A DNA stretch of 64,000 nucleotides, taken from IMG/VR virus record IMGVR_UViG_3300027708_000021. One strand, 5' to 3'. Positions 8,366 through 48,451 of the stretch are shown one piece after another. The DNA is from a virus. How positions within the stretch are numbered: position 1 is the stretch's first letter; each line of letters begins with the position of its first letter. Below the pieces are notes generated by a model. The model was given only the letters and a program-made list of their open reading frames with translations. It did not search any database and had not been told where the DNA came from. Made by a program: the position numbers and the translations under genes.

Positions 8366-11300
8366 GTGCCCGGGAATCTAACAAGAATTAATAATAATCA
8401 AATCACTGATGCTGTCAGTGGTAATACGCAATTTGGTATTAACGCTAATACCAAAGTCCAACCCTATTCCATTACATCAACACTACTGGCTAATAACTTT
8501 ACCTACGGTAATAATTTTACAATTACAGGTAACTTAACTGTTCAGGGAAATTCCACAGCGATCGATACAACAAATACAACGATCGAGGATCCACTATTAC
8601 TGTTAGCCAGTACACAAGCAGGAAGCCCAACGGTAGATATTGGCTTTATTGGTCAACGCGGCTCATCGAATAATATAGCATTTGTTTGGGATGAAAGTTC
8701 ATCAACATTCGTCACAGTTTTCACAGATTCTGGCGCTACCGACAACACAGTTGTTAATATTTTAAGTTATGCTGACTTTGCTACAGCTAACGCAAATGTT
8801 ACTGGCAATTTAATTGCTGGCAATGTATCTCTCCTTGGCAATGTAACCAGCGCATTAAATGTAACTGGTAATATCGCAGCCGGAAATATTGCGGCTGTTG
8901 GATTAATCAGTGCTACAGGTAATATCGCAACTGGTAATTTTATCATTGGTAACGGTTATTATATCACTGGTATTAATCCCGGCAACGTAGCAGTTACTAA
9001 AATTGTAAATGGCGGAAGTTATGGTAATATTGCTAGTTCAGACGGCAATTTAGTTATTGCTATTGGTGCTACGTCAAATGTTGCGGCTACATTCTACGAC
9101 ACTGGTGTAAATTTTGGTGGTAATATTAGTGTCAACGGTAATGTTACTGGCGCTAACTTTGTTGGTAATTTAAGTGGCGGCCTAGGTAGCAATTTAACTG
9201 TTAACAACTATGTTATTAAAGGCGGCAACTACGACGGCATTACACTAGCAATGCCAGTAGGCTTTGGCGCAAACTTATCATCAGCATACGAAGGTGGTGT
9301 AACACTAGCTGCTGGAGCTGGTGGCACTACAGCGGGTACTTTACTCCTTGATTCAACTGGTAACATAAGTATTAGCGGCAATGTTTATGCTGCAGGCAAT
9401 TTAAGTGTAGTTGGTACTGCTATAACAGGAAATATTATTCCTAGTACTAGCAATACATATTCATTAGGTAATGCTACTAATGTATTTTCGTCACTTTATC
9501 TCAGCCCAGATACATTATATCTTGGCACAACAAAAGTAGGCGCTAATACTACTTCCAATACATTGACAGTTAACAATGCTATTGCTGTTACATATAGTAA
9601 TGGCAATGCCGATATCACTGCTACTGGTAATGTTATCAGTGGCAATGTAAACACAGGCAATCTCAGTCTAACCGGCAATGTTATTAGTGCTTTAAATGTA
9701 ACATTAAATGCCACGGCTGGTAATGTTATTGCCGTAGGTAATGTAAGTGCTGGCGGTAATGTAGTTGCTTTTGACGCAGTCAATGCAGCTAATTTAAGTT
9801 TAACCGGCAATGTTATTTCAACATTAAATGTAACTGGTAATACCAATTCTAACAATGTTAATACAGTAAATGATGTAAGGGCTACAGGTAATGTTCACGG
9901 TGCTAATTTTATAACTGGTGGATTGATTACTGCTACTGGTAATGTAACTGCAGGTAATATTATAACAGGTGGTTTGATTAGTGCAACAGGTAATGTCAAC
10001 TCTGCCAATGTAATTGCTAGTGCTAATATTAGTGCTACTGGCAATATAAGCACTCAAGATACTTTTGTTGGCAATGCTTTATATGGTAATAATTTAACAA
10101 TTACTTCGACATACGATGGATTGAAATTTAGTGTAACTGGCAACATTAATTCTGGCAATACATATATCACTAATTTAATTAATCCAGAAAATCCACAAGA
10201 TGCTGCTACTAAATCATACGTTGATGCTATTGCCAACGGTTTACAAGTTAAAGCATCTAGTAACACAGCCACAACTGGTTCAATTTTAGCTACTACTACT
10301 CAGTCATACACATATAGCAATGGTACAGCTGGCGTAGGCGCAACTATCACATTTGGCGCAGTAGGCAATGTTACAATTGACACAGTATTACTTACAAGTG
10401 GTATGCGTGTTCTTATTAAGGACGAGCCATTGGTTGCTCCAACAGACGGAACAACTCCTAGTGCGGCCTACAATGGTATCTATACTGTAACAACAGCTGG
10501 TAGTCCAAGTGCTGCATTGGTACTGACTCGTGCCACAGACGACGACACCCCAAGTGAAATGTATAGTGCTTACACATTTATTACTTCGCCTATCATTGCT
10601 GATAATTCTAATTCTGGCTGGGCAAGCACAAATACTCCAACGAATCCTGGTCCAATCACAGTTGGAACCACGTTTTATATTTGGAGCCAGTTCTCATCAG
10701 TCGCTGAATACACCGGCGCTAATGGTATCAATATTACTGGTACATTAATCACTACAGTATATGACGGCAACACTATCGGTATAAATGGTTCTGGCCAATT
10801 ACACGTTCCAGCATACGCACTATTTACAACACCAAATATTGGTAGTGCTACTGGTGCTAATTTAAGCATACTAGGAAGTGTAATAGGTAATATATTCCAA
10901 GCTAACACAGTAAGTGTTATTGGTAACGCACAGATTGGTAATATTTCAACTGGAAATATCAGCCTTTCTGGTAATGTATTAACTGACCTAAACGTAACAA
11001 CTAGTGTATATGCCGGTAATTTGGTAACTAACGGGAATGTAACTGCTGTTGGCAATGTATATGGCGGTAATATTAGTTCAGCTAATATCTATGGTACAAA
11101 TATTGGCACAGAACAAATCGTATTTGGTAATGCTACCATTAATGGTTTATTAACCAGTGTTTCAACATTAACCACAGACGGTAACAATGTTACTGCTGGT
11201 GGAAATATCAATGCCAGCGGTAATGTAATAGCTGGTAATTTCCAGACTATTGGCTCTGGCGGCAATATTTCTGGTGCTAATTATATCAAAGGTAATATAT

Positions 11301-12637
11301 TATCTGTTACTGGTAATGTTTACGGCGCTAATGTTACAACTGTTGGAAATATCAGTGCTACAGGTAATATTGCGACTGGCAATTATTTTGTTGGTAATGG
11401 TTATTATATCACTGGTATTAATCCCGGCAACGTAGCAGTTACTAAAATTGTAAATGGCGGAAGTTATGGTAATATTGCTAGTTCAGACGGCAATTTAGTT
11501 ATTGCTATTGGTGCTACTTCAAATACAGTAGCAACATTCTACGACACTGGTGTTGACTTTGCTGGCAATCTCAGTGTTGCTGGCAATGTTATTGGTGGAA
11601 ACATAACTACAATTGGCCTAGTAACAGCAACAGGAAATGTAACTGGTGGAAATATCTTAACAGGTGGACTTGTTAGTGCTACTGGTGATATCAATACTAG
11701 CGGTAATGTCAGCGCAGTTGGCAATGTAATAGCTGGAAACATTTCAACATCGGGCGCAAGTGGCAATATCACAGGTGCTAACATAGTTAGTGCTGTAACA
11801 TTTACAGCTACTGGCAATGTTTACGCTGTTAATGTGTTTGCTTCTACAGATGTAAGTGCTACTGGTAATGTACTAGCCACTGCTAATATAACAGGCGGCA
11901 ATATTTTAACTGCTAATATTGTTAGTGCTGGCGGTAATATCCAATCTGGCACAACAATGCTTGTTGATACTACTACAGGATCTGTAACACTTGGCGCTAA
12001 CGTAACACTAACAGCAGGCGCAACTCTAGCCATTAACGCTACTGACAGTATGTTAATTCCAGTTGGTACCACAGGCGATCGGCCAGGTACACCAGCTACT
12101 GGTATGTTACGTTACAACAGCACGTTATCATCTTGCGAAATATGGAATGGCGCAGCTTGGGTAGCAGTAGGTGGATCTAGCTATACAGTTATTACAAACG
12201 AGCAATTTAACGGTGACGGCTCAACAGTAGCATTTACTTTAGGATCAAGTCAAACCACTGATAGCTGTATCGTTACTATCAACGGTGTGGTACAAATCCC
12301 AACTACAGCATATTCTGTAAGCGGAATATACCCAACTTGCGTATTAACATTTACTGAAGCTCCAGCAATTAGTGATATAATCGATGTTCGTGAAATTACT
12401 AGTACTTCAACTGTAACAGCTATTTCTAATAGTCCTGGTAATGCTATAGTTTCTGTATCTTCAACAATTGGACAAGTTAATATTGCTGGTAACTTAGTGG
12501 CACAAGTTAACGCTACGGCTCCAAGTTTAACTGGTAATTCAACAATGTCATTCCAGTTAATTAGCAATACAAGTTTAGCTATATTAGTTCGTGGTACAGA
12601 CGGTGTTACAAGAAGCACAACCCTTACACTATCTTAA
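8366..12637 (+). CDS. Long tail-fibre protein (GNxT repeats, COG5301-like domain)
   Basis: GTG start with AGGAG SD; DAATKSYVD..VKAS..RVLIKD..NGIY..LTRATD module; extensive SATGNV repeats. Confidence 0.75.
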   Translation: MPGNLTRINNNQITDAVSGNTQFGINANTKVQPYSITSTLLANNFTYGNNFTITGNLTVQGNSTAIDTTNTTIEDPLLLLASTQAGSPTVDIGFIGQRGSSNNIAFVWDESSSTFVTVFTDSGATDNTVVNILSYADFATANANVTGNLIAGNVSLLGNVTSALNVTGNIAAGNIAAVGLISATGNIATGNFIIGNGYYITGINPGNVAVTKIVNGGSYGNIASSDGNLVIAIGATSNVAATFYDTGVNFGGNISVNGNVTGANFVGNLSGGLGSNLTVNNYVIKGGNYDGITLAMPVGFGANLSSAYEGGVTLAAGAGGTTAGTLLLDSTGNISISGNVYAAGNLSVVGTAITGNIIPSTSNTYSLGNATNVFSSLYLSPDTLYLGTTKVGANTTSNTLTVNNAIAVTYSNGNADITATGNVISGNVNTGNLSLTGNVISALNVTLNATAGNVIAVGNVSAGGNVVAFDAVNAANLSLTGNVISTLNVTGNTNSNNVNTVNDVRATGNVHGANFITGGLITATGNVTAGNIITGGLISATGNVNSANVIASANISATGNISTQDTFVGNALYGNNLTITSTYDGLKFSVTGNINSGNTYITNLINPENPQDAATKSYVDAIANGLQVKASSNTATTGSILATTTQSYTYSNGTAGVGATITFGAVGNVTIDTVLLTSGMRVLIKDEPLVAPTDGTTPSAAYNGIYTVTTAGSPSAALVLTRATDDDTPSEMYSAYTFITSPIIADNSNSGWASTNTPTNPGPITVGTTFYIWSQFSSVAEYTGANGINITGTLITTVYDGNTIGINGSGQLHVPAYALFTTPNIGSATGANLSILGSVIGNIFQANTVSVIGNAQIGNISTGNISLSGNVLTDLNVTTSVYAGNLVTNGNVTAVGNVYGGNISSANIYGTNIGTEQIVFGNATINGLLTSVSTLTTDGNNVTAGGNINASGNVIAGNFQTIGSGGNISGANYIKGNILSVTGNVYGANVTTVGNISATGNIATGNYFVGNGYYITGINPGNVAVTKIVNGGSYGNIASSDGNLVIAIGATSNTVATFYDTGVDFAGNLSVAGNVIGGNITTIGLVTATGNVTGGNILTGGLVSATGDINTSGNVSAVGNVIAGNISTSGASGNITGANIVSAVTFTATGNVYAVNVFASTDVSATGNVLATANITGGNILTANIVSAGGNIQSGTTMLVDTTTGSVTLGANVTLTAGATLAINATDSMLIPVGTTGDRPGTPATGMLRYNSTLSSCEIWNGAAWVAVGGSSYTVITNEQFNGDGSTVAFTLGSSQTTDSCIVTINGVVQIPTTAYSVSGIYPTCVLTFTEAPAISDIIDVREITSTSTVTAISNSPGNAIVSVSSTIGQVNIAGNLVAQVNATAPSLTGNSTMSFQLISNTSLAILVRGTDGVTRSTTLTLS
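8954..9072 (+). repeat. 119-bp exact direct repeat, copy 1 (copy 2 at 11399-11517)
   Basis: ggttattatatcactggtattaatcccggc...gctattggtgctac is identical at both positions, encoding GYYITGINPGNVAVTKIVNGGSYGNIASSDGNLVIAIGAT. Confidence 0.9.
11399..11517 (+). repeat. 119-bp exact direct repeat, copy 2
   Basis: Identical to 8954-9072; flanks are diverged. Confidence 0.9.
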
Positions 12638-12716: not shown

Positions 12717-15700
12717 ATGGGCTTAACACGAATCCGCGCAGAGCAAATATCAGACATTGATTATAAACAAGCAGTTAGAGTCATCTCAACTTCTGACGTT
12801 AATTTAACCGGCGGAGCTCCCAGTCAAGTCGACGGTGTATCTCTTAATGTCAAAGATAGAATCCTAGTAACAGGACAAAGTACTGCTAGCCAAAACGGAC
12901 TATATGATGTAACTGTAGTTGGTAGTGGATCAAATGGCACTTGGGTAAGAACGTCAGATTCTAATGCCACTGGTGAAATCAATGCCGGTATGATTGTCAT
13001 GGTTACCGAAGGTAACACCTACGCAGATACCTCCTGGAAATTAATCACAGATGATCCTATTGTAATAGGTATTACAGCATTAACATTCTTACAAAATACT
13101 GGTAATTCTTTCAGTATTATCGATATCGTAGGCAGCGCAAATGTTGTAGCCAATGCTGTAAGTAGTACAGTATCATTTGCCAGTGGAAACAATTTTTCAA
13201 TTACCGGCAATGCTGCGGCCGACACAATCACATTCAATGTCGTTCAGAATCCAAGTTTCACTGGTAATGTCTACGGCGGCAATCTACTAACTGCTGGTTT
13301 AATAAGTGCCACTGGCAATGCTATAGTTGGTAATTTATCAGCAACAGGTAATATCGCTGGCAATTACTTTATTGGTAACGGAGCATTTTTAACAGGTATA
13401 TCAGGTGGTAACAGTGGTGGTAGTGGCAGTAATATTTCTAATGGCACAAGTAATATAACAGTAGTAGGCGCCAACGATAATATCACGGTGGGTGTAAGTG
13501 GAGTGGGCAATGTTGTAGTATTTGCCCCTACAGGAGAATATGTTACTGGTTTAATAAGTGCTACAGGCAACGTTACTGGTAATTACATCTTAGGCAACGG
13601 TAGTCAATTAACTAATACAAGCATTTCGGTCAGTAATTGGTATACTGGTAATGTAATATCGAATAGTATTTCCAATATAGAATTTTTAAGATTTAATGCT
13701 AACTCAGGTATTTCAGTCAGTGACCTGGGCAATAATTCTGCATTGGTTACTCTAGGTAGCTCATTTAAAACTTGGGAAGTAGCTGGCCAAGCTAACTTAG
13801 TTGCTGTTGGCGAAGATGTTGTTCAATTTGTAGCTGGTAATAATATTGTTATCACTACTAATGCTAATGTTATACCACAACAAATTTCTTTTGCAGTTAA
13901 TAGTAATTTAACTGGAATAAGTGTAAGTGTAACAGGCAATGTTACCGGTGGCAATTTACTGACAGGTGGATTAATTTCAGCTACTGGAAATATCTATGGA
14001 ACAAATTTTATTGGTAACCTAAGTAATGGTAATAGTAAAATTAGCGTGGCCAACAATGGCAATGTCACAGTTGGAATAGGACCGTTTGATACAACTTATG
14101 TAACCATTGCCCCGGCGTTGCTCAGTGTAACTGGTAACATTATTGCCAGCGGCAACATAACTGTTGTTGGTAATATCTCAGCTAATAATAGTATAATTAC
14201 TGGATTTGAATCAGTAACTGGCAATGTTTATGGTGGTAATATATTAACAGCTGGGTTAATTTCAGCAACATCAACTATAACAAGTGCTGCTAATATTAGC
14301 GGCGGTAATATATTGACAGCTGGATTAATTTCAGCAACATCGACTATAACAAGTGCTGCTAATATTAGCGGTGGTAATATATTAACAGCTGGATTAATTT
14401 CAGCAACATCGACTATAACAAGTGCCGCTAATATTAGCGGTGGTAATATATTAACAGCTGGACAGTTAAGTGCGGTGGGCAACGCGATAGCTGGCAATCT
14501 AGCAACAGCAGGCATAGTAACAGCAACTGGTAATGTTATTGCCGGTAATATCTTAACTGGCGGGCTAGCATCGATAACTGGAAATATTACAACTGCCGGC
14601 AATATTAATACAGCTAATATATATGGAGCTACGGGCGTAACTATTGCTACAGGCGGTAATAATAATATTAATTTATATCCAGGCGGTACTGGTAATATTG
14701 TATTACCATCTGGTAATGCCACTTATATTAATAATTTACCGCTAACCCCGGTACAAGATAACGATGCGGCATCCAAATATTATGTTGATATATTAGCGTC
14801 ATCGGGTCTTGCGTATCATACGCCAGTTTATGTGGCCACCACAACAACTTTGGCTACAACTACCGGTGGCACAATTACATACGCTCAGCCTAACGGAGCT
14901 GGCAACGGTATTGGAGCAACAATTACTACAACTGGGTCGTTTAATTTAATCGATACCGGTAATGTACAAACTGTAGGTACCCGCATCTTAGTTAAAGACG
15001 AAGCTAATGCTGTTCTTAACGGAATATACACTTGGTCCAATGCTACTGCGATTGTTCGTAGTACTGACGCAGATGAATATGGTCCAGATAGTGCTAATGC
15101 TTTAAGTCTTAATGATTATTTCTTTACAACTAACGGTAATGTCAACATTGGTACCGCATTTATTGTTAATGCGCCACCTGGTGTCATTACTTTTGGCACA
15201 AGCAACATTACCTTTGCGACATTTAGTACAAATCAAACTTATACCAGCGGCAACGGTATCAGTATTGCTGGTACTGTAATTAACGCTAGAGTCGATAATG
15301 TTACAACAGCATTTGATCTTGGCGGCAATATTAGTGTAAAAGCCGGTGCTAATTTAACGACTCCAAATATTGGCGCTGCCACTGGTACAAGTTTAAGTGC
15401 TACTGGAGCATTACAAGCTGGAACAACGATCAGTGCCGCTGGTAATGTCACTGGCGGTAATATATTAACAGGTGGATTAGTAAGTGCTACCGGCAATGTT
15501 ACTGGTAATTATATACTAGGTAACGGAGCATTATTAACTGGTGTTACTACATCAAGTAATACGATATTCAACGCTAATAGTAATGTAGCAATAGCCACAG
15601 CCAATGCCAATGTCACAGTATCAGTAAGCACGGTAGGTAACGTGGTAGTTATAACTCCAACTGGATTGAGTGTCACAGGTACAATAACTTCTACTGGCAA

Positions 15701-21197: not shown

Positions 21198-21893
21198 ATG
21201 ACAGCATCTACCAATCTAGTACACATTGTAAGTACTACTCAGCCAACAGGTTTGAATTTAGGGGACGAATGGTATAATCCTACGACCAACACTCTATACA
21301 AAAATCTGTTGGTCAATGGTACTACCACACTGGTAAATCAGTTGCCGGCATCAGCCAATTCAACAAGCAATATTTCCATGCCAACAGGCACAGGAGCAGC
21401 AGCTGTTCAAGGCTTATCTACTAATATTGCCAGCGGAAATGTTACGCCTTCCACATCGGGAACCAGTATTGACTTTACTGGCATTCCTAGTTGGGTAAAA
21501 CGTATAACTATAGTGTTTAATGGAGTTTCTGAAAACTCTGCAAGTCAAAATCTTATAATACAGATAGGAAATGGCAATATTGTTACAACAGGTTATGCTT
21601 CAAGCGCGGCTTATGCTGGAGCAAGTCCGGCAGGAGCCACTAGTACTGCTGGTTTAATTGTTGCTAATACAGTGAATTCCGCCAACATCTTGTCCGGCAC
21701 AATAACACTTACAACTTTAGGTCAAAATATTTGGGTGTCTTCAGGAACCATATCTATAACAAACGGCGCTTTTGTTTTCTTAGCCGGTGGAAATTCTCCT
21801 ACTCTTACCAGTGCTTTAGATAGAGTCCGTATTACTACAGAAGGCGGCACAGCTACATTTACCGCTGGTAGAATCGGCATTCTTTACGAATAA
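21198..21893 (+). CDS. Tail-fibre-related protein
   Basis: P..GDEWYN N-terminal motif; SIDFTGIPSWVKRITI...LDRVRITT...ILYE C-terminal domain typical of phage fibre tips. Confidence 0.55.
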   Translation: MTASTNLVHIVSTTQPTGLNLGDEWYNPTTNTLYKNLLVNGTTTLVNQLPASANSTSNISMPTGTGAAAVQGLSTNIASGNVTPSTSGTSIDFTGIPSWVKRITIVFNGVSENSASQNLIIQIGNGNIVTTGYASSAAYAGASPAGATSTAGLIVANTVNSANILSGTITLTTLGQNIWVSSGTISITNGAFVFLAGGNSPTLTSALDRVRITTEGGTATFTAGRIGILYE

Positions 21894-31472: not shown

Positions 31473-31476
31473 TTAA

Positions 31477-38736: not shown

Positions 38737-39869
38737 CCTATAATATAAACAGTAGCCAAGTACTCAATAATAGATATTTTAGTAATTCTACATTTTCCGC
38801 AAACAATGCATTGTATGCCTGGGGTAATAACACTTTTGGTCAATTAGGCCTCAGCGATACAACTAACAGATCAAGTCCAGCGCAAGTTGGCACCTTGAAC
38901 TACTGGACCCAAGTATCCTGCGGATATAATTATTTCTCTCTAGCACTACAAAGTCCAGGAACATTATGGTCCTGGGGAAGCAATTCTTTTGGTCAGTTGG
39001 GTGTTAATACCGCGCCTACAAACAATACCTCTAGCCCAGTACGTGTAGGCTCACTAAGCAACTGGCTACAAATAGCAGCTGGTAACGCCCACTGGTTAGC
39101 TATCCAAAGCCCAGGCACATTATGGAGTTGTGGATATAATGGATACGGTCAGTTAGGTCTTAATACTTCAACAAATTATTCTAGTCCTGTACAGATTGGC
39201 GCTTTGAACACTTGGACACAAGTAGCAGCTGGTAATTACTCTAGTTATGCTATACAGAATACCGGAACACTATGGTCTTGGGGAGTTAATACCTATGGAC
39301 AGTTGGGTCAAATTAATACTACAAACTATTCTAGTCCAGTACAAGTAGGTACATTGAGCACTTGGACACAGATATCCGTGAATTCTACATCTGCTACTGC
39401 TCTAGCAATACAAAGCAATGGTACATTATGGTCGTGGGGCATCAATAATTATGGTCAAATAGGCAATAGCAATACTGTTAATCAATCTAGTCCAGCGCAG
39501 ATAGGCACTTTATCTCTTTGGACCAGAATCGCCAACGGTGGATATTCAAGCTATGCTATACAAAGCAATGGTACACTATGGGCATGGGGATTGAACAGCC
39601 AAGGTCAACTAGGTCTTAACACCACTGTAGGAGTATCTAGTCCGGTACAAGTGGGTACAGCTAGTACTTGGTCGCAGGTAGGCGCCGGCGCACTACAGTT
39701 GATAGCTATACAAAACAATGGCACGTTATGGATGTGTGGCTATAACGCCCAAGGTCAATTAGGAAACAATTCAACTACCAACATTTCTACACTCACCCAA
39801 GTAGGGTCACTAAATAAATGGAACTTTGCTACAGGTGCTTGGCAGATTTTGGCACAGCAAATTCCTTAA
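38733..39869 (+). CDS. RCC1 repeat protein (single 7-blade propeller)
   Basis: Half + six + half repeats, the usual velcro closure; ATGA-coupled. Confidence 0.88.
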   Translation: MTYNINSSQVLNNRYFSNSTFSANNALYAWGNNTFGQLGLSDTTNRSSPAQVGTLNYWTQVSCGYNYFSLALQSPGTLWSWGSNSFGQLGVNTAPTNNTSSPVRVGSLSNWLQIAAGNAHWLAIQSPGTLWSCGYNGYGQLGLNTSTNYSSPVQIGALNTWTQVAAGNYSSYAIQNTGTLWSWGVNTYGQLGQINTTNYSSPVQVGTLSTWTQISVNSTSATALAIQSNGTLWSWGINNYGQIGNSNTVNQSSPAQIGTLSLWTRIANGGYSSYAIQSNGTLWAWGLNSQGQLGLNTTVGVSSPVQVGTASTWSQVGAGALQLIAIQNNGTLWMCGYNAQGQLGNNSTTNISTLTQVGSLNKWNFATGAWQILAQQIP

Positions 39870-39885
39870 TTTAGACAGGTGATTA

Positions 39886-40536
39886 ATGAAACAACTTATT
39901 ATTGACAGCGGGTTTTACAACGATCCCGAGCAAATGAAGACACTCTTCGTGAATCTTGACTTTGTAAAGAATGAAAACATGTTACAAGGCAAGATATGTC
40001 CCATGCAGTTTGCCAATGATGACATGTTACGGCATATCCAGAATATCATTGGAGTACCAGACAATATCTCCGCATTTGAATTTGTTGCAGGATCCGGCAC
40101 ATTTATCAGTAACCAAGCAGATGAATTGCCGGCCAGATCAGTTTGTATCCAATATCCGGAGCCTAACACACAATGGGTAGGCGTTGTATCTCTAAACAAG
40201 TCTGAAAAACCGCATTATTTGAAATTCTACAAACACAAGCGTACAGGTTGGGACCATGTTTCCATGGATCCAGAAGAGTTGTCCAAAGAGAAATTGTATT
40301 CCTATGAGCACATCGAAGCATTCATGGCTTTTGAAAATAATAATTGGGAAGATAAATGGGAAGAAACTAGCCGCGTTGAGTTAAAACCTAACGAATTGGT
40401 GTTGTTTAGACCTTGGATGTTCCATTCTTACAATGATGTTTTTGGTGATAGCCAGCAGACAGCCAGACTTCTCCAATTCTTCTTCTTAAAACCTACACAA
40501 GACTTGACAACTAGCCAAGAACCAAGTACAATCTAA
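39886..40536 (+). CDS. 2OG-Fe(II) oxygenase-like protein (DUF6445-like), catalytic motif degenerate
   Basis: IIDSGFYNDP start, WVGVVSL, FYKHKRTG, NELVLFRPWMFHS, FGD...RLLQFFF. Confidence 0.65.
   Translation: MKQLIIDSGFYNDPEQMKTLFVNLDFVKNENMLQGKICPMQFANDDMLRHIQNIIGVPDNISAFEFVAGSGTFISNQADELPARSVCIQYPEPNTQWVGVVSLNKSEKPHYLKFYKHKRTGWDHVSMDPEELSKEKLYSYEHIEAFMAFENNNWEDKWEETSRVELKPNELVLFRPWMFHSYNDVFGDSQQTARLLQFFFLKPTQDLTTSQEPSTI
40504..40532 (+). promoter_or_regulatory. Sigma70-type promoter upstream of the sulfotransferase operon
   Basis: TTGACA (40504)-17 nt-TACAAT (40527). Confidence 0.65.
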
Positions 40537-40564: not shown

Positions 40565-41344
40565 ATGGAAAATATTCATTTCATCTCTGGCCTTCCACGT
40601 GCGGGCACAACATTATTATCTTCAATCCTTAAACAGAATCCAAAATTTAATAGTTCGATCTCAGGACCACTTGCTCGGTTTTATAGAGCTATCATCGAAG
40701 AATCACAATCACAAGGCGGATATCGTTTTCAATGCCCCAAAGAAAAACGCAAAGAGTTGATACACTCTGTTACAGACACATATTATAAAGATAGTGCGCC
40801 AACAGTATTTGATACTAATCGGGGTTGGACATATCTAACTCCAATGCTAGCTGATTTATATCCCAAGGCCAAGACTATTGTTTGTATCCGTAGTATTCCT
40901 TGGATCATCGACAGCTTTGAAACATTGTTTGCCAAAAATCCATATGATGTTCCCCTTATGTTTCCACAAGGTGCTGGCGTTAGTGTTTATAGTCGTGCCA
41001 AGTACTTGACAGATCCTTCGGCATTCGTAGGATTTGCCTATGACGGTGTCAAGCAAGCCATGTTTGGACCTAACAAAGAAAACATCATGGTTGTACAATA
41101 CGACCAGCTGGCTAAAAATCCTAAACTAGTAATGAAGAAGATCTATGAATTTATTGGCGAGCCGTGGTATGAACACGACTTTGACAATGTTCAAGGCGAC
41201 TACGACGAGTTCGACACTGACATGAATATCAATGGATTACATCATGTACGCCAGAAGGTACAGTATAAAGAGCGTCAGACTATATTGCCAGGAGACTTAT
41301 TCAATCATCTCGAGCAGATGGATTTCTGGAAACATCTTAAATGA
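40565..41344 (+). CDS. Sulfotransferase (PAPS-dependent)
   Basis: FISGLPRAGTTLLSSILKQNP 5'-phosphosulfate-binding loop; IR..PWIIDSFE; VQYDQLAKNP..VMKKIYEFIG. Confidence 0.88.
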   Translation: MENIHFISGLPRAGTTLLSSILKQNPKFNSSISGPLARFYRAIIEESQSQGGYRFQCPKEKRKELIHSVTDTYYKDSAPTVFDTNRGWTYLTPMLADLYPKAKTIVCIRSIPWIIDSFETLFAKNPYDVPLMFPQGAGVSVYSRAKYLTDPSAFVGFAYDGVKQAMFGPNKENIMVVQYDQLAKNPKLVMKKIYEFIGEPWYEHDFDNVQGDYDEFDTDMNINGLHHVRQKVQYKERQTILPGDLFNHLEQMDFWKHLK

Positions 41345-42123
41345 TAGGTAAGCCCCGTAGGAATGTGTTGGTATCTGCAGAATGTGGCACACTATTAGTC
41401 AATAGATTTGATTACAATCCAGCAAATAACTTTGGGGTAGGGCAGTTTATACTAGACAAAGGGATCGACTGTATGGTCCCTGCTTACATATTAAAAAGAT
41501 ATTTTACAGACATAGCTAATCCCGTAGTAATAGATGTAGGATCTAATATAGGTGTATTTGCTCTCCAAGCAGCACAACATGTGGAACAATTTAACGGCTA
41601 TGTCTATGCCTTTGAACCACAGGAACAACCATTCTATCTTAACTGTGCTAACTATGCCTTGAACAATATCGACAATGCTAGAGTAGAACGATTAGCAGTT
41701 GGCGATACAACCAAGCCAATCACCATACCCAAAATTAATTACTATCAACCTTCTAGCTTTGGTAGTGTGGGATTGACTGGCGAATATGACGGAGATGTAG
41801 GACAAGAATTAGATTTTGGCAATGGTGATCAGGTACCCCAGATCATCATCGATGAATATTTTAAAGATATCGGTAATATTGTATTCGTAAAAATAGATGT
41901 AGAAGGCATGGAGATGAATGTCTTAAAAGGCTCCATGGAAACTATCAAACGGAATCGTCCTTTCTTATTTGTAGAATATACTAAACAACCAAATAACGGC
42001 AACGACTTGAAAGAATTTATTGAGGCCTTGGATTATACAATATATATTACACATCAAGATTTTGTTTGTATTCCAAACGAAAGAGTTGATACAAAAATAC
42101 AAGAGATATTAAACGAATTATGA
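41341..42123 (+). CDS. FkbM-family SAM methyltransferase
   Basis: VIDVGSNIG, VYAFEPQ, KIDVEGMEMNVLKG..TI...RP.LFVE. Confidence 0.9.
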   Translation: MIGKPRRNVLVSAECGTLLVNRFDYNPANNFGVGQFILDKGIDCMVPAYILKRYFTDIANPVVIDVGSNIGVFALQAAQHVEQFNGYVYAFEPQEQPFYLNCANYALNNIDNARVERLAVGDTTKPITIPKINYYQPSSFGSVGLTGEYDGDVGQELDFGNGDQVPQIIIDEYFKDIGNIVFVKIDVEGMEMNVLKGSMETIKRNRPFLFVEYTKQPNNGNDLKEFIEALDYTIYITHQDFVCIPNERVDTKIQEILNEL

Positions 42124-43493
42124 TGACTGATCATGACGCTGTAAAACAAACTATAGAAATCTTCACCCGCACTGATTTATTAGATGAGATAGTCACTCTC
42201 TTAGAGACTTTTGAAAAACACAAAGTAGTACCAAACGATTTACTGGGCAATGATTTATATTGTTTTGGGTATAACAAAGCCAAAAAATTCCTTAAATCCA
42301 TCGAATATGGAGAAAGGGCGTTAGAGCAGGCCAAGTCTATTGAAGAAAAACTAGCAGTATCAGCAAACTTGGCCAAAGTATATCTATCGGCTAACAAGCC
42401 TACCAAGGCGGTGTCAGCATTTAAGTTTATGTCTAATAATATAGACATGGGTGCTGAAGGCATGTTAGATCTTTCAGCGGCATTATTTGCCTGTAATAGA
42501 AAAGATGAATCCTATGAGATACTGAAAAATATAGAAAAAGATCTATGGAAGTATGATGGTACCATGGCCGATTCTATATTATTCAACATGGGTGTACACT
42601 ATATAGCTCAAGGTGATTTTAAAACAGGCATGGAACATCTCTCAATAGGCCGTAAATTAAAAGTATTCGGATCATATTCTAAGGTCACAGATGGATTACC
42701 AGAGTGGGATGGCAAGCCACGCCCAGGCAAACATTTATTATTTGTAGCAGAGGGTGGCATCGGTGACGAAATTATCAATGTAAGATTTGTTAAAAATATC
42801 TTAGCCATGGGTATGACCTGTTCTATAATGTCAGTACATGGCATTACCAGCGTTTATAGTCATCTTGGATTTACTAAGATGATCAATACTAGCCAATACA
42901 ACAAACGAGATTTTGACTACTGGACTCCAATGATGGATTTACCAAAGACATTGAATCTTGACGCTGATCAATTATGGACTGGTCCTTACTTAGAAGCCAA
43001 ACCAGAATATATAGAAAAGTACAAAAATTCTATCACTGGTGATTATAAAGTAGGATTACGCTGGGCAGGCAATGCCAGATATGACCATGAACTACATCGA
43101 ACATTAAATCTACAGAGCATGATAAATGCCATGCCAAAAGACAATGCGTGGTCCTTGTACTCCATACAGCGTGATGTGGGCATGGACCAATTAAAACAGA
43201 ATCCCCGTGTCAAAGATCTCAGTTTGGAACTCAAAACATTTGACGACTTGTTGGGAATCATGTATAATTTAGACTTAATCATCACAAGTTGTACCTCTGT
43301 GGCACATGCCGCTTGTGCCATGGGCAAGAAAACTATTATCCTAGTACCAATTATGGAATATTATACTTGGGCAGAAGGTAAGCCAACAGCTAGTTGGTAT
43401 GGCGACAATTTAAGATTGATTAGACAGGTAACTCCAGAAATTTGGAAAGAAGCATACGCAGAATTAAAAGAAGTACTCAAGGACATCGAATGA
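42120..43493 (+). CDS. TPR-containing glycosyltransferase (GT-B, GT9-like), paralog of 756-1907
   Basis: TPR-like helices; AEGGIGDEIINVRF, VGLRWAGN, LDLIITSCTSVAHAACAMG, WY..LRLIRQ. Confidence 0.82.
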   Translation: MMTDHDAVKQTIEIFTRTDLLDEIVTLLETFEKHKVVPNDLLGNDLYCFGYNKAKKFLKSIEYGERALEQAKSIEEKLAVSANLAKVYLSANKPTKAVSAFKFMSNNIDMGAEGMLDLSAALFACNRKDESYEILKNIEKDLWKYDGTMADSILFNMGVHYIAQGDFKTGMEHLSIGRKLKVFGSYSKVTDGLPEWDGKPRPGKHLLFVAEGGIGDEIINVRFVKNILAMGMTCSIMSVHGITSVYSHLGFTKMINTSQYNKRDFDYWTPMMDLPKTLNLDADQLWTGPYLEAKPEYIEKYKNSITGDYKVGLRWAGNARYDHELHRTLNLQSMINAMPKDNAWSLYSIQRDVGMDQLKQNPRVKDLSLELKTFDDLLGIMYNLDLIITSCTSVAHAACAMGKKTIILVPIMEYYTWAEGKPTASWYGDNLRLIRQVTPEIWKEAYAELKEVLKDIE

Positions 43494-46309
43494 AAAAAAC
43501 TATTGGATTCGTAACATCGGGATTAAAATTTAACGGACATACTGTTAATGAAAAAGCATTAGGCGGATCTGAATCAGCACTGATCTACATGGCTAGAGAA
43601 ATGTTCAAGCTGGGCAATGATGTAGTAGTATATTGCGAATGCGATGTCCCAGGTTGGTACGATGGCGTGGAATATCGCACAGTAGATCAATACACCAACG
43701 ATAACAAAGCACAGTTTGATACATTAATTGTAAGTAGATTTACAGATTTCCTAGCACTACCAGTTGACAGTAAGATGAATATCCTGTGGTGTCATGATAT
43801 CGATACTAATAATTTTAGAGATGCAATAGGTTGTACTGACAGAGTATTTTGTCTTAGCGAGTTCCATAAGTCTTTATTTGTTAAAAACTATGACATTGAT
43901 CCGACAAATTATGTATGGAAGACTTCTAATGGATATGATCAAGAGATTGTTACAGAGTATGTACCATACGAACAGAAGAAAAATAACTATATCTATGCTA
44001 GCCGTCCTGAGCGTGGCTTAAAATTATTACTGGAAAAGATATGGCCCGAGATCATCGAGCGTAATCCCGATGCGACCTTACATATCTGTACCTACGAACA
44101 TTCATTATCACTACCAGAGGATGTTAAAAAGATACACAAAGAAGTAGAAGACCTATTAGAGTACAGTCGTAATATTAAACAGATTGGTCACTTGCCCAAG
44201 CGTGAGTTTTATGAATTATTGTCTAATTGTGCTTACATGGTATATCCAACGAACTTCCCGGAGATTTCTTGTATCAGTGCCATAGAAGCACAATACAACG
44301 GATGCTTGGTCATCACCACAGATGAATTTGCCATGTCAGAGACCGTAAAGACTGACACTAAAGTCAAGGTCACGGACGACTACGGAACCGTAGACTATGT
44401 AACAAAATTCTTAGCACATTTGGACAAGTACCAAGATGATGTATATGAAGCTGAAGTAGCTAAGGCTAAAAAAGCCATACTACCATATGCTTGGGAGAGA
44501 GTGGCAAAATCCTGGAACTCCGAGATAGATTTCATGTTCAACAAGAGACATGAAAAATACAAAGACAAAATCCTTGACCAATTGGTTTATAATTCTGACA
44601 TTGTAGCCGCTTGGAAATTAACAGGTGACCAGAAATATCGCGATATGTTGGATCAAGGCGAAAAAGATAACTTAACTATTTCCGATTTTACTCCTGTAGC
44701 CAAAGATGAAGATGCTTATCTTAGCGGTCGGGGAATGAAATTAATCGAGCTAGTCCAGAATGAAATTGAGATGTTCCCTAGCAAAAAGTTAAAAATCCTT
44801 GATTTAGGCAGTAATGACGGCATACTTTCGTTACCACTCATGAAGAGATTCGCTGATAATATTGAAGTATTGACTATGTATGATTCGTCTCAGGGTGTAT
44901 TGGACCATGTAAAATCACAGTACAAAACAAAATACCCGCAGATAAATTATATCGTAGATGATGTAAGAAATGTATTGACTTATGACTTACAACCTGACAT
45001 CGTACTCGTTGGCGAATTATTAGAACACATCGAAGACACACAACAGTTCCTTGATTTCTTAATGAAACTTGCTAATAAGAATACATTATTTTATTTTACT
45101 GTACCCATGGGCCCTTGGGAACACATGGTCAAGAGAAAAAAATTAGAAATACATCATGTACATCACTTTGAATTGAATGACTTACATGCTATATTTAAAA
45201 ATGTTGACTTGTCTATAGCTAAAAACGCACACAGTACCAAAGGTCGTAAGGGTGAAATGTGTAGCAACTGGATGTTCTGGTTTACAGCTAGCAAGGATGA
45301 CGACATCGAGTTTGGCTATGTTGACTACGAAGACAAATGGCTCAAGACCAGACCATATAAAACTATATCTACTTGTATGATCGTATGCAACGAAGAAGAT
45401 AATCTCAGTCGTTGTTTGAAAACTGTTACTGATTTTTCTGATGAGATCATTATTGTAGACACAGGATCAACCGATGATACCAAGTATATCGCAGGTAAAT
45501 TCACTGACAAGATCTATGATTTAAAGTGGGAAGAAGAGGATGGCCTTGGCAACTTTGCCAGAGCTAGAAACTACTCTATCAGCCTTGCTACAGGGGATTA
45601 TATCTTTTGGATTGACGCGGATGAACAACTAGAAAATAGTATGGCCCTACAAAAATATATTATCAGCGATTATTACGACGGTATCTTATTGCGTCAAGTA
45701 CAGGCCATGAGTAAGAAAGCGCATGACAACGGAGTCAATGTGGATGTTATGCATGATAGATTTTTTAGAAACAATATAGGCATTAAGTTCACTGGTGTCA
45801 TACATGAATATCCTAGTAGAGATGACGAACATTTCCTAGGTTATAAGATGTTCTGGCAGGATCATATCTATGTCACCCACTACGGTCTGGCAAATCAGGA
45901 GACATTAAAGCGCAAAGCCATAGGAAGAAACGCTAATCTGATATATAAGAATGTAAGAACATACCCTAAACGAGTATTTGCTAGACACTATATCATGGTG
46001 GATTACTGGAGTCAGTTTATCACAGGACATCCAACTCCAGACATGACATGGTTAGAAAAAGGTATGGACATATGGCATAATGACTTGAAGAAATGCGGTG
46101 ATGATTGGACTATCCGATTGTCGCTGGGAGTACTACAGCATTTCTATAGCTATTGTGCCGCAAATGGTATCGCCTTCAAAGGTAAATTGCCCGAGAAGGT
46201 AGCTTTCCAGAATGGAGAAAACGGCGAGATGATAGATTTCTTTGTTGTTGATCCTGAAGAAGAAAGTGATTTTTTCTTGAAATATCTCGCAAATTTCAAG
46301 AGACCTTAA
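43490..46309 (+). CDS. Trifunctional GT4 glycosyltransferase / class I SAM methyltransferase / GT2 glycosyltransferase
   Basis: GGSESALIYMA, YASRPERGL and YPTNFPEISCISAIEAQ (GT4); ILDLGSNDG and ELLEHIED (MTase); CMIVCNEE, VDTGSTD, FARARN and WIDADE (GT2). Start moved to ATG 43490 (ATGA overlap, AAGGA SD). Confidence 0.88.
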   Translation: MKKTIGFVTSGLKFNGHTVNEKALGGSESALIYMAREMFKLGNDVVVYCECDVPGWYDGVEYRTVDQYTNDNKAQFDTLIVSRFTDFLALPVDSKMNILWCHDIDTNNFRDAIGCTDRVFCLSEFHKSLFVKNYDIDPTNYVWKTSNGYDQEIVTEYVPYEQKKNNYIYASRPERGLKLLLEKIWPEIIERNPDATLHICTYEHSLSLPEDVKKIHKEVEDLLEYSRNIKQIGHLPKREFYELLSNCAYMVYPTNFPEISCISAIEAQYNGCLVITTDEFAMSETVKTDTKVKVTDDYGTVDYVTKFLAHLDKYQDDVYEAEVAKAKKAILPYAWERVAKSWNSEIDFMFNKRHEKYKDKILDQLVYNSDIVAAWKLTGDQKYRDMLDQGEKDNLTISDFTPVAKDEDAYLSGRGMKLIELVQNEIEMFPSKKLKILDLGSNDGILSLPLMKRFADNIEVLTMYDSSQGVLDHVKSQYKTKYPQINYIVDDVRNVLTYDLQPDIVLVGELLEHIEDTQQFLDFLMKLANKNTLFYFTVPMGPWEHMVKRKKLEIHHVHHFELNDLHAIFKNVDLSIAKNAHSTKGRKGEMCSNWMFWFTASKDDDIEFGYVDYEDKWLKTRPYKTISTCMIVCNEEDNLSRCLKTVTDFSDEIIIVDTGSTDDTKYIAGKFTDKIYDLKWEEEDGLGNFARARNYSISLATGDYIFWIDADEQLENSMALQKYIISDYYDGILLRQVQAMSKKAHDNGVNVDVMHDRFFRNNIGIKFTGVIHEYPSRDDEHFLGYKMFWQDHIYVTHYGLANQETLKRKAIGRNANLIYKNVRTYPKRVFARHYIMVDYWSQFITGHPTPDMTWLEKGMDIWHNDLKKCGDDWTIRLSLGVLQHFYSYCAANGIAFKGKLPEKVAFQNGENGEMIDFFVVDPEEESDFFLKYLANFKRP

Positions 46310-46598: not shown

Positions 46599-47438
46599 AT
46601 GTCACAGCGTATATTAATCATGGGCCTACCTGGCTCAGGTAAAACTACCTTAGCAGGAGAACTTAAAACGTACTTGGAAAAGCACGGTGATATGAGTTAC
46701 GGTCGTGCTCTTAATGAACACATTGGTAGTTTTGGCTGCGAAGTAAATTGGTTTAATGCCGATGACATCCGCAGAAAATACAACGACTGGGATTTTTCTA
46801 ATGATGGCCGTATCCGTCAAAGTATCCGTATGTTCCAGTTTAGTATGGAATCGGGCGGTGATTATGTAATCTGTGACTTTGTAGCTCCTTTAGTTGAAAT
46901 GCGTAACAACTTCAAGGCCGACTGGACTATCTGGGTAGACACTATCCGCGAAGGTCGTTATGCTGATACCAATGCGGCATTTGTTGAACCTGAACAATAT
47001 GATTTTAGAATCACAGAACAAAACGCAGAAAAATGGGCAGAGTTTATCGGTCAACACATTATTGATAATCGCCGCCGTCCTCGATTTGACTGGCAGAAAG
47101 AAACAGTACAGATGCTAGGCAGGTGGCAACCGTTTCACGATGGACATAAGGCGTTATTTGAAAGATTAATTGCTCGAACAGGACAAGTAGTGATACAAAT
47201 CCGTGACTGTCAAGGTTGGCAAGGATCTAACCCATTCGCTATAGAACAAGTTAAAAAATTTATCCGTAGAGAGTTAGATCCTGTATATCAAGGGCAGTAT
47301 GAAATACAAGTAGTGCCTAATATTGTACACATTGGATACGGGCGTGGGGTAGGGTACACTATAGAACAGGAAGTGTTTGATGACGAAACACACGATATCA
47401 GTGCTACAAAGATTCGTAAAGAGCTGGGCCTTAAATAA
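46599..47438 (+). CDS. Adenylylsulfate (APS) kinase-like P-loop domain fused to HxGH nucleotidyltransferase
   Basis: ILIMGLPGSGKTT, NADDIR, DFS..GRIRQ, ICDFVAP (CysC-like); MLGRWQPFHDGH (cytidylyltransferase-like). Confidence 0.8.
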   Translation: MSQRILIMGLPGSGKTTLAGELKTYLEKHGDMSYGRALNEHIGSFGCEVNWFNADDIRRKYNDWDFSNDGRIRQSIRMFQFSMESGGDYVICDFVAPLVEMRNNFKADWTIWVDTIREGRYADTNAAFVEPEQYDFRITEQNAEKWAEFIGQHIIDNRRRPRFDWQKETVQMLGRWQPFHDGHKALFERLIARTGQVVIQIRDCQGWQGSNPFAIEQVKKFIRRELDPVYQGQYEIQVVPNIVHIGYGRGVGYTIEQEVFDDETHDISATKIRKELGLK

Positions 47439-47643: not shown

Positions 47644-47671
47644 CTGGGCATATAATTAACTAAGTAAATTT

Positions 47672-47760: not shown

Positions 47761-47788
47761 GTTGACAAACATTTCGCTAAATATAGAT

Positions 47789-48451
47789 ATGGAAGCTAGA
47801 TATAGAAAAGATTACCCGGGCGAATTTGTTATTTTAGAATCCAAATGGGCCGGTGGTAAAAAACACGAAAAACGCGAATGGATTGAAAATCCTATCATAA
47901 ATCAACACCTATCTGGTAGAGCCGCAGTTATCGGTAGTAGTGAAAGCAGAGATAGATTTGATTATAAAGTATTAGAAGGTCATCGTGGCGGCTTGTTGGG
48001 TTCGTTAAAATTACAAACATACGGCACAGCAAAAATTGCTTTAGATATGCGTTTAGATTTTGCTGTAGATACTGATTACAATAATCTTATTCCTTTGGTC
48101 GAAAGCAAATATACAGAAAATAATATTGTATATACAACTAGTAAGAACTGTCTTAAACAGCCAGGCGAATTTTATTTAACACCATTAAATCCACATTTAT
48201 GTACAGCCGTACTGCCAATATATCTTGCTGCATTCGATGGACATAAAGAAATTTACATGTTAGGTTACGATAAAGAAACAGAGGCTGGACAGTCTGATTG
48301 GATTGATCAAGTTACCAGATTAATGAATGCTTATGCTGGCACACTTTTTATTATGGTTGGTAATAAACTGAATATGCCAGATGCTTGGTTGTCTTGCCCT
48401 AATACTAAAAACTTAGATTTTAGAGACTTTGTAACTCACTGCGATGTTTGA
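47789..48451 (+). CDS. Maf/DUF115 (sialyltransferase-fold) putative glycosyltransferase
   Basis: RAAVIGSSESR and IYLAAFDGHKEIYMLGYD motifs; start placed at ATG 47789, 5 nt after TAAATA (47778). Confidence 0.55.
   Translation: MEARYRKDYPGEFVILESKWAGGKKHEKREWIENPIINQHLSGRAAVIGSSESRDRFDYKVLEGHRGGLLGSLKLQTYGTAKIALDMRLDFAVDTDYNNLIPLVESKYTENNIVYTTSKNCLKQPGEFYLTPLNPHLCTAVLPIYLAAFDGHKEIYMLGYDKETEAGQSDWIDQVTRLMNAYAGTLFIMVGNKLNMPDAWLSCPNTKNLDFRDFVTHCDV

Follow-up and report, generated by a model that had tools for sequence, protein, structure and literature searches.

A TPR-GT9 glycosyltransferase family linked to RCC1-propeller genes as a candidate system for self-modification of fibre proteins in T4-like phages

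Introduction

The IMG/VR virus record IMGVR_UViG_3300027708_000021 is a stretch of 64,000 nucleotides, the whole of which is called the window here. Between positions 8366 and 48451 it carries a long block of genes for fibres and RCC1 propellers, followed by a cassette of predicted glycosyltransferases (GTs), methyltransferases and a sulfotransferase (Table 1). The question raised by this locus is what these enzymes act on. An earlier inspection of the letters by a model (the sequence-only reading) had proposed that the phage builds a sulfated, methylated glycan on its own appendages, and had taken the dense N-x-S/T sequons of the fibres and propellers as the link between the enzymes and their substrates.

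Our preferred answer, to which a probability of about one half is given, is that a cytoplasmic system modifies the phage's own propeller and fibre proteins, that an O-linked modification is likelier than an N-linked one, and that its sulfation step would be backed by an enzyme supplying 3'-phosphoadenosine 5'-phosphosulfate (PAPS). Its basis is the folds, motifs and gene linkage described below, from which we infer the catalytic steps and the identity of the acceptor.

Results

RCC1 genes accompany the TPR-GT9 gene across phages

The core enzyme of the cassette is a 457-aa protein, in which a tetratricopeptide-repeat (TPR) region precedes a glycosyltransferase domain of the GT9 fold (TPR-GT9). 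In a scan of IMG/VR, at least 571 phage loci were found to encode a TPR-GT9 relative. The 95 gene-bearing loci that were analysed represent 48 clusters at 80% identity, and RCC1 genes were sought in the fetched flanks. RCC1 genes were present in the flank of 38 of the 48 clusters, mostly 0-2.5 kb away. Among the ten clusters without RCC1, six had less than 3 kb of upstream sequence; in the other four, TPR-GT9 and a sulfotransferase lay beside large low-charge proteins, and TPR-GT9 was often tandemly duplicated. L024, L077, L081 and L107, which are phages and contigs of metagenome-assembled genomes (MAGs) with no nearby RCC1, had tandem TPR-GT9 genes and a sulfotransferase, accompanied for example by an 1845-aa protein in which Asp, Glu, Lys and Arg together (DEKR) make up 6%.

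The usual order of the module was an S74-chaperone fibre, three seven-bladed RCC1 proteins of about 400 aa, TPR-GT9 and variable enzymes. Homologues of the 872-aa S74 fibre precede the RCC1 genes in most related loci, and that of cyanophage S-SRM01 is annotated 'long tail fiber protein distal subunit'. The position of RCC1 was found to vary: besides lying upstream or downstream of TPR-GT9, it can be on the other strand or flank TPR-GT9 on both sides. Homologues of the other cassette enzymes were recorded for the sulfotransferase in 31 of the 48 clusters, for the kinase/nucleotidyltransferase in 16, for the GT fusion in 8 and for the FkbM methyltransferase in 7. The conserved core across phages, as judged from gene content, is RCC1 plus TPR-GT9, usually with DUF6445 and the sulfotransferase, and the other enzymes appear to be lineage-variable additions. 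The core enzyme thus stays linked to RCC1 genes in many divergent phages and in more than one gene order.

In the cultured-phage collection, 51 records had RCC1 homologues and only 5 had TPR-GT9; all four cultured records with a full-length TPR-GT9 have RCC1 within a few kb. Most of the RCC1 records lack TPR-GT9, and together these distributions are what would be predicted for an enzyme that depends on its substrate. In S-SRM01, the genes for the long-tail-fibre distal subunit, RCC1, RCC1 and a TPR protein are followed, after five more open reading frames (ORFs), by RCC1, a sulfotransferase, an ORF, a GT, an ORF and an NDP-sugar epimerase. The order in BUCT-ZZ01 is tail fibre, small ORF, RCC1 and a GT9-like gene. 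The paper on S-SRM01 does not discuss these genes, and a megablast search of the enzyme cassette against cultured phages gave no match. An RCC1 protein of phage GAP32 was confirmed as a virion protein by mass spectrometry (PMC5259590).

The core enzyme joins a TPR superhelix to a GT9-like domain

The AlphaFold model of the 457-aa protein was confident (predicted local distance difference test, pLDDT, 93.6), with ten helices at residues 4-178 forming a TPR superhelix, followed by a GT-B domain; TPR profiles matched, and both parts are contained in one soluble chain. In the exhaustive VIA search, the C-terminal domain was closest to 3tov (Z 17.7), RfaF (Z 16.9) and WaaC (Z 16.6), over 232-242 residues at a root-mean-square deviation (rmsd) of 2.7-3.1. 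TibC (4rap) was matched with Z 15.7 over 241 residues at rmsd 3.1, which is not better than the heptosyltransferases of lipopolysaccharide (LPS). Other GT-B folds reached Z 12.2 at most.

GT41 enzymes (OGT, SPINDLY and HMW1C/NGT) combine a TPR or all-alpha domain with GT-B, are cytoplasmic and have protein acceptors. When the whole protein was searched with Foldseek, the top matches were SPINDLY and bacterial and human OGT, and HMW1C was at rank 47. These matches had E-values of 2e-8 to 1e-4. However, their template-modelling (TM) scores were low (0.2-0.4), the GT41 chains gave Z 10.4-11.9 in the VIA search, compared with 15.7-17.7 for GT9, and the GT41 family PF13844 was matched by neither the 457-aa protein nor its family members in Pfam.

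The GT9 family PF01075 was not matched by the 457-aa protein either; its paralogue scored 19.6 bits against a cut-off of 22, and only 7 of 37 family members had weak matches. Because the gathering score of PF01075 was not reached, TPR-GT9 is regarded as a distant GT9-like family and not as a member of the curated Pfam family. Nevertheless, G215 and D216 (GGIGDE) and D385 and H396 (in the block D...SCTS.AHAAA) were invariant in the 37 sequences, down to 22% identity. These G-D and D...H-x-A-A-A motifs we take to be the GT9 signature, equivalent to D13 and D261 of WaaC. The 'TPR-GT' label of the sequence-only reading is therefore upheld, with the GT9 fold at residues 200-457. PDB sequence searches added little: a profile found TPR matches only, and the 457-aa protein alone found nothing useful. 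One related phage gene carries the annotation 'glycosyltransferase tibC'.

The second TPR-GT that had been proposed at 756-1907 was likewise recognised, as a paralogue which shares 22-27% identity with the C-terminal domain of the relatives' 457-aa protein and retains the motifs GHGD and VDTAVGHLA. A 54% homologue of it is found in the related locus L014, adjoining a homologue of a 317-aa ORF. In the window, the paralogue adjoins an ORF at 2-727, open at its end, with 33% glycine, 0.8% charged residues and GGxGG runs but no collagen G-x-y repeat.

The TPR-GT9 family comprised 24,930 representatives at E<=1e-3. Many of the cellular relatives have 1,200-3,100 aa with 2-6 matched stretches each, one of them from an Oscillatoriales cyanobacterium MAG.

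Associated transferases and the lack of lipid-carrier machinery

The 955-aa protein is a fusion of GT4, methyltransferase and GT2 domains. The best PDB matches of its GT2 domain were GmaR (8.6e-26), SunS (2.6e-13) and 7msk (1.9e-10), which we take to be ThuS; generic GT2 enzymes followed at 5.6e-06 or worse. GmaR, the O-GlcNAc transferase of Listeria flagellin, and the peptide S-/O-glycosyltransferases SunS and ThuS align over the whole GT2 catalytic domain, in which the motifs DTGSTDD and DADE are intact, and they act on protein or peptide acceptors. The phage GT2 differs from them in being fused behind GT4 and the methyltransferase and in lacking their C-terminal TPR or regulatory parts. Its best NCBIfam match was SunS (TIGR04195), at 60 bits against an equivalog cut-off of 350, so it is not an equivalog member.

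The 220-aa protein had no Pfam or NCBIfam match, and its PDB sequence search gave nothing useful. Its model (pLDDT 81.7) was most similar to Maf (5mu5, which ranked first among 48,161 chains, with Z 11.8 over 181 residues), followed by the pyrophosphokinase (HPPK) MptE (8sd5, Z 10.1) and the Cst sialyltransferase (Z 8.5). In the nearest Atlas cluster with a family (score 0.89), PF01973 was found in 16% of the members. The 'Maf/DUF115-like transferase' of the sequence-only reading can thus be kept as a fold, but not as a sequence family, and the MptE kinase is a close second; a glycosyltransferase and a pyrophosphokinase are not told apart by their fold. The 220-aa protein has 1483 homologues, and the 120 listed were 57-97% identical and nearly all about 220 aa long, which suggests that it behaves as a core gene of the phage group rather than as an accessory transferase.

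Membrane segments are absent from all proteins of the cassette. Moreover, no flippase, polymerase, ligase, oligosaccharyltransferase or initiating phosphoglycosyltransferase, and hence no lipid-carrier machinery, was present among the domain matches of the cassette and the window, and neither heptose-synthesis nor nonulosonic-acid-synthesis genes were seen in the window. A protein-directed system is therefore supported by the predicted TPR plus GT-B layout, the GmaR/SunS-like GT2, the Maf-like fold and the absence of membrane segments and lipid-carrier machinery.

The same features bear on the best of the rival explanations, in which the transferases would remodel the host surface during infection, acting on LPS core, exopolysaccharide, S-layer glycan or nucleotide-sugar or lipid-linked precursors, for example to block superinfection or to aid release, with the fibre region merely tolerating insertions. 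GT9 enzymes classically heptosylate the LPS core, RfaF and WaaC rank near the top of the fold search, the GT domains are classed in PHROGs as 'moron/auxiliary metabolic gene' and as GtrB-like O-antigen conversion, the accessory enzymes differ between relatives as in a hyperplastic region, and S-SRM01 adds an NDP-sugar epimerase. However, the machinery expected for such a role was absent, the core enzyme has a protein-binding TPR domain, and its GT2 companion is nearest to protein and peptide glycosyltransferases. Furthermore, the RCC1 adjacency persists through inversions and transpositions, and the genes are packed with the fibres on one strand. Host-surface remodelling is thus considered unlikely, although it fares best among the rivals.

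A sulfotransferase with a candidate PAPS-supply enzyme

The sulfotransferase carries the 5'-phosphosulfate-binding (5'-PSB) motif GLPRAGTT at residues 9-16. Its best PDB matches were the tyrosylprotein sulfotransferases TPST1/2, with weak E-values (~3e-3) and over the PAPS motifs only.

The 279-aa protein couples an APS-kinase-like P-loop to an NMNAT-like nucleotidyltransferase motif. Its PF01583 (APS_kinase) match scored 29.6 bits against a cut-off of 21.1, with only residues 4-33 aligned, and TIGR00455 gave 22 against 139. In its Atlas neighbour clusters, PF01583 was found in 94-100% of the members in nine of ten rows and in 72% in the tenth; PF01467 appeared in six lower-ranked rows (34-91% of members). 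The sulfotransferase was present in 15 of the 16 clusters with the kinase/nucleotidyltransferase, compared with 16 of the 32 without it (Fisher p 0.003, an optimistic value because the clusters are phylogenetically related). A role in NAD salvage (NadR/NadM-like, near the Nudix gene) would agree with the motif GRWQPFHDGH; PAPS supply is ranked above it, since the family shows an APS_kinase signal and the protein co-occurs with the sulfotransferase.

The DUF6445 family was found in 65 loci of the RCC1/TPR-GT9 module by jackhmmer. With counts of 47/55, 46/55 and 52/55 for the three residues of an HxE/D...H triad, that is, about 85-95% of the members, the family looks like a 2-oxoglutarate/Fe(II) (2OG/Fe(II)) dioxygenase. 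A PDB sequence search with the window's DUF6445 protein gave nothing useful. An active dioxygenase role of ORF 39886-40536 in this phage was rejected, as C87 and Q89 replace H and E/D. The copies of close relatives share C and Q at these first two ligand positions and are probably inactive.

These observations leave a second rival, in which sulfate would be placed directly on Tyr, Ser, Thr or a dioxygenase-made hydroxyl of the propellers and fibres, with glycosylation by TPR-GT9 running in parallel. The Sulfotransfer_3 family includes the tyrosylprotein sulfotransferases, which are also the best PDB matches; the sulfotransferase accompanies TPR-GT9 in 31 of 48 clusters, whereas glycan-extending GTs are found in only 8; and the DUF6445 family with its triad belongs to the module. 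Moreover, this is a live alternative because Iyer et al. (2010; PMC2938197) predicted computationally that hydroxylase-sulfotransferase-PAPS synthetase operons hydroxylate and then sulfate tail-collar and collagen-like proteins. Against it, the TPST matches are weak and confined to the PAPS-binding motifs, the motif of the carbohydrate sulfotransferase NoeE matches too, the window's DUF6445 copy lacks the metal ligands, and TPSTs favour acidic contexts, which are absent from these low-charge proteins. We regard direct protein sulfation as quite unlikely.

The TPR-GT9 protein as a possible assembly factor

The linkage data are equally compatible with a chaperone and with an enzyme. TPR proteins often serve as chaperones, and phage fibres often need assembly factors that are encoded alongside; TPR-GT9 might therefore fold or attach the RCC1 propellers as a chaperone or scaffold, with an inactive GT domain and with the other enzymes as unrelated auxiliaries. 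Nevertheless, the GT9 signature residues are invariant in 37 sequences including the paralogue, and other transferases regularly accompany TPR-GT9, which makes an assembly factor very doubtful. A complex prediction of TPR-GT9 with the 378-aa propeller, performed without controls, gave a score of 0.01 and a mark of 0.32 and is evidence neither way.

The sequons follow from charge loss and repeat inheritance

As the sequence-only reading had noticed, about 31 kb of fibre and RCC1 genes encode proteins nearly free of charged residues. Of the nine fibre and RCC1 proteins, one (18330-21188) had a DEKR content of 9.0% and the other eight had 1.6-5.6%, compared with 16-33% in most other proteins of the window. 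At 2059-39869, about 12,000 residues share this low charge (1.6-9%), baseplate-distal proteins included along with the fibres and RCC1 proteins. In the homologous proteins of relatives with the same enzyme cassette, DEKR was 9-15%. The charge loss is specific to this phage's close lineage (3.3% in L001 compared with 10.6% in L019), and the substitutions at conserved blade positions are K to Q or T, D to N, and R to N or Y.

The sequon counts were compared with 500 composition shuffles, with the reversed motif S/T-x-N as a control. N-x-S/T exceeded the shuffles with z 3.4-7.8 in the RCC1 proteins and, more modestly, with z 2.2-3.1 in the fibres. In the fibres, N-x-S/T was 1.33-fold and the reversed motif 1.36-fold the expectation, with N-S/T dipeptides depleted; this excess is the i,i+2 alternation of beta strands and not a sequon signal. 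In the RCC1 proteins the excess was directional, with 214 N-x-S/T observed against 109 expected (1.96-fold) and the reversed motif at 0.58-fold. It stems from four register positions of one blade of about 50 residues (NGT, NNS, NT(T) and N-R-S-SP), and about 80 blades inherit the four sequon positions from one unit; the RCC1 z-scores are overstated for this reason.

When 22 propellers of related phages were aligned, they read KTDGTLW...GQLGDNT...RSSPVQ...TNWKQ where this phage has QSNGTLW...GQLGLNT...N.SSPVQ...STWTQ. In the relatives (35 loci), N-x-S/T occurred at 0.6-3.2 per 100 aa (0.5-1.8 times the shuffles) and D-x-S/T at 1.8-4.0, compared with 4.2 and 0.75 in this phage's lineage, and the sum of the two varied little among the relatives, mostly amounting to about 4-6 per 100 aa. 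Asp at the same positions and the constant sum therefore indicate that the RCC1 sequons arose by replacement of D with N, as part of a loss of K, D and R that is specific to this lineage. Furthermore, propellers of ordinary charge and with few sequons are found in relatives that have the same enzymes. No sequon enrichment that exceeded composition, repeat inheritance and the reversed-motif control and was also tied to the enzymes was found.

The N-x-S/T density noticed by the sequence-only reading is thus above shuffled controls, and directional in the RCC1 proteins, but the symmetric fibre signal, the inherited positions and the Asp of the relatives remove its meaning, and the sequons fail as a link between enzymes and substrates. 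The sequon clue is an artefact, because charge depletion and repeat inheritance produce N-x-S/T. In the best explanation, the charge loss, together with the abundance of N-x-S/T that it brings about, is a lineage trait in its own right and does not serve as a recognition code.

With this, N-linked glycosylation by a cytoplasmic HMW1C-like enzyme on the Asn of N-x-S/T in fibres or propellers becomes highly improbable: the directional RCC1 excess and the Foldseek match to HMW1C speak for it, while the statistics of the relatives and a catalytic domain nearer to GT9 than to GT41 speak against it. Should the propellers be glycosylated, O-linkage to conserved Ser/Thr is likelier, because the RCC1 linkage holds where the blades carry Asp. 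DNA glucosylation and secondary-metabolite synthesis were rated unlikely, given the TPR and protein-GT affinities.

Source phage and layout of the locus

From its genes, the window is assigned to an uncultured giant freshwater T4-like phage related to Kyanoviridae. Sheath, tube, adaptor and sheath-stabiliser genes lie on the flanks of the region, the same DNA is contained in freshwater metagenomes of 12 studies, and the closest cultured relatives for the studied genes are the Kyanoviridae cyanophages S-SRM01 and BUCT-ZZ01.

The features are collected in Table 1. All fibre, RCC1 and enzyme genes at 8366-46309 lie on the + strand, and those at 24622-46309 abut or overlap. The RCC1 block is followed by DUF6445, the sulfotransferase, FkbM, TPR-GT9 and the GT fusion and then, after short gaps, by the 279-aa and 220-aa ORFs. 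A late, co-directional fibre module is the best explanation of this block. The Pfam E-values of the four RCC1 proteins (24622-39869) ranged from 1e-55 to 0. An ORF check agreed with the coordinates of the sequence-only reading, and the Pfam scores sustained its sulfotransferase (59 bits) and FkbM (70 bits) calls. The cassette that it had listed directly after the fibre and RCC1 genes has the domains named, but its Maf/DUF115 label applies at the fold level only.

Table 1. Features of the window, with positions, strand and the evidence for each assignment
Positions	Strand	Length (aa)	Feature	Evidence
756..1907	-	383	Second TPR + GT9-like protein	TPR families; weak Glyco_transf_9 match at 302-329
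8366..12637	+	1423	Fibre-like protein with GN(V/I)(T/S) repeats, DEKR 5.3%	No Pfam family; homologues in fibre blocks of relatives
12717..18320	+	1867	Fibre-like protein, DEKR 4.4%	No Pfam family; BUCT-ZZ01 protein annotated 'tail fiber protein' 32% identical
18330..21188	+	952	Fibre-like protein, DEKR 9.0%	No Pfam family
21198..21893	+	231	Small low-charge ORF	No family
22004..24622	+	872	Fibre with C-terminal intramolecular chaperone Peptidase_S74, DEKR 2.9%	PF13884, E 2.4e-12, residues 786-837
24622..29982	+	1786	Multi-propeller RCC1 protein	PF00415 in 31 stretches; sequons 2.06x shuffle expectation, z 7.0
29979..31472	+	497	RCC1 protein	PF00415
31477..38736	+	2419	Multi-propeller RCC1 protein	PF00415 in 42 stretches; sequon z 7.8
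38733..39869	+	378	Single seven-bladed RCC1 propeller, DEKR 1.6%, 20 sequons	PF00415; aligned with 22 relatives
39886..40536	+	216	DUF6445-family protein	DUF6445 matches 6/7 family members, best E 6.3e-11
40565..41344	+	259	PAPS-type sulfotransferase	PF13469, E 7.8e-16, 59.4 bits vs cut-off 27
41341..42123	+	260	FkbM-family S-adenosylmethionine (SAM) methyltransferase	PF05050, E 3e-19, 70 bits; TIGR01444, 91 bits
42120..43493	+	457	TPR (1-190) + GT9-fold glycosyltransferase (200-457), core enzyme	Predicted structure, fold search
43442..46309	+	955	GT4 (~90-366), SAM methyltransferase (~433-592), GT2 (~637-843) fusion	Pfam
46599..47438	+	279	APS-kinase-like P-loop + NMNAT-like HxGH nucleotidyltransferase, candidate PAPS-supply enzyme	Motifs GLPGSGKTT, GRWQPFHDGH
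47789..48451	+	220	Conserved protein with Maf/MptE-like (PF01973-type) fold	Inferred start 47789; model and fold search
48436..48885	-		Nudix hydrolase, cassette boundary	phrog_1198, E 2e-23; conserved neighbour in relatives (synteny)

In L001, a relative with cassette proteins 80-97% identical to those of the window, an additional 2.1 kb or so (L001 15347-17484) separates the kinase/nucleotidyltransferase gene from the 220-aa gene; the corresponding spacer of the window (47438-47759) is only 320 bp long and contains a hairpin (47740-47756). Over the whole window, the T4 late-promoter core TATAAATA was depleted, with 3 occurrences observed against 11.4 expected from shuffles, and the late-promoter motif of this T4-like phage probably differs from that of T4. 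Scans of the window for sigma-70 promoters and terminators were uninformative.

Discussion

Proposed mechanism

We propose that phage enzymes modify the RCC1 propellers, and possibly also the fibres encoded nearby, while these are still in the host cytoplasm, before assembly. The TPR half of the 457-aa protein would recruit the propeller or fibre substrate, as the TPRs of FlmG and OGT do. The GT9-fold half, with its GD and D...H-A-A-A signature, may then transfer the first sugar, for which conserved Ser/Thr would be likelier acceptors than sequon Asn. The GT4-methyltransferase-GT2 fusion, FkbM and possibly the Maf-like protein could extend and methylate the glycan or, alternatively, add further protein-linked sugars. 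Finally, the sulfotransferase would put sulfate on the glycan or the protein, with PAPS supplied or boosted by the 279-aa protein. As for the sulfated, methylated glycan on the phage's own appendages that the sequence-only reading had proposed, the protein-directed features and the RCC1 linkage are in its favour, but the sequon premise on which it was built has gone.

Several points weigh against self-modification. The textbook substrate of the GT9 family is the LPS inner core and not a protein. In cells, TPR-GT9 is an uncharacterised family of great size; Bdellovibrio copies do not lie beside RCC1 genes, and a scan of bacterial contigs yielded 8 loci with one narrow pattern, which are too few to judge. 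The 48 clusters are not independent events, because the loci come mostly from one broad clade with conserved synteny. Moreover, the APS-kinase match of the 279-aa protein covers little beyond the P-loop, and the metal ligands are lost from the window's DUF6445 copy, which has C87 and Q89 in place of the first two. The Maf-like fold of the 220-aa protein is nearly tied with a pyrophosphokinase, and its gene is highly conserved in phages and elsewhere rarely less than 10 kb from TPR-GT9.

Comparison with known systems

Among known systems, TibC/AAH (the BAHT enzymes) with TibA/AIDA-I are close in that soluble cytoplasmic GT9-related enzymes O-glycosylate Ser of a repetitive adhesin before export, and TibC is among the four best fold matches of the TPR-GT9 C-terminal domain. 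However, TibC has no TPR domain, the LPS heptosyltransferases match the phage fold equally well or better, and TibA/AIDA-I is a beta-helix autotransporter, unlike the putative virion beta-propeller substrate here. The title of the TibC structure paper, as cited in PMC7591256, describes an iron-containing dodecamer.

In FlmG, the N-terminal TPR binds the acceptor and the C-terminal GT-B sets the donor (PMC7591256; bioRxiv 10.1101/2022.03.25.485807). FlmG of Caulobacter and Brevundimonas is likened to TPR-GT9 by architecture, not by sequence, as a soluble TPR plus GT-B enzyme that acts in the cytoplasm on a repetitive protein of an extracellular appendage; it differs in transferring pseudaminic or legionaminic acid, for which synthesis genes were not seen in the window. 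The operons predicted by Iyer et al. resemble the phage module in combining a dioxygenase-like family, a sulfotransferase, a methyltransferase and a PAPS-related enzyme. Nevertheless, they are bacterial, have other dioxygenase families and lack TPR-GT9 and RCC1, and the dioxygenase-like copy of the window is degenerate.

Mycobacteriophages differ as well: they are actinophages with other GTs, and TPR-GT9, RCC1 propellers, a sulfotransferase and a PAPS enzyme are absent from their virion glycosylation. Their glycosyltransferases reportedly modify the phage's own structural proteins (Freeman et al. 2023; echoed in PMC11256854), the targets being the C-termini of capsid and tail-tube proteins. 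To our knowledge, modification by a phage of its own virion is experimentally known only in mycobacteriophages, and we know of no description of sulfation of a phage virion. As far as our searches show, the TPR-GT9-RCC1 module, its breadth and its associated sulfation and PAPS genes are undescribed in the literature searched.

Significance

A widespread uncharacterised TPR plus GT9-like family is tied to RCC1 propellers across hundreds of environmental phage contigs. As a tentative extension, which we hold to be more probably wrong than right, the aquatic T4-like clade as a whole (at least 571 IMG/VR loci, with the cultured Synechococcus phages S-SRM01 and BUCT-ZZ01 among its members) might make sulfated, methylated O-glycans on RCC1-propeller receptor-binding proteins by means of TPR-GT9, in most lineages with a DUF6445 dioxygenase and a minimal PAPS-supply enzyme. 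The idea is testable in two cultured cyanophages, one of them on the genetically tractable Synechococcus elongatus PCC 7942.

The near-total loss of charged residues over about 12,000 fibre residues is a separate, unexplained oddity; if the proposal is true, glycan or sulfate might be the sole charge on the uncharged fibres of this lineage. The system would also provide the first case of a sulfated phage virion, and protein glycosylation would be ascribed to the TPR-GT9 family for the first time. Glycan and sulfate coats would then bear on host recognition, on stability and particle interactions in freshwater, and on how host range is read from fibre sequences, and the very large cellular TPR-GT9 family would gain its first functional hypothesis.

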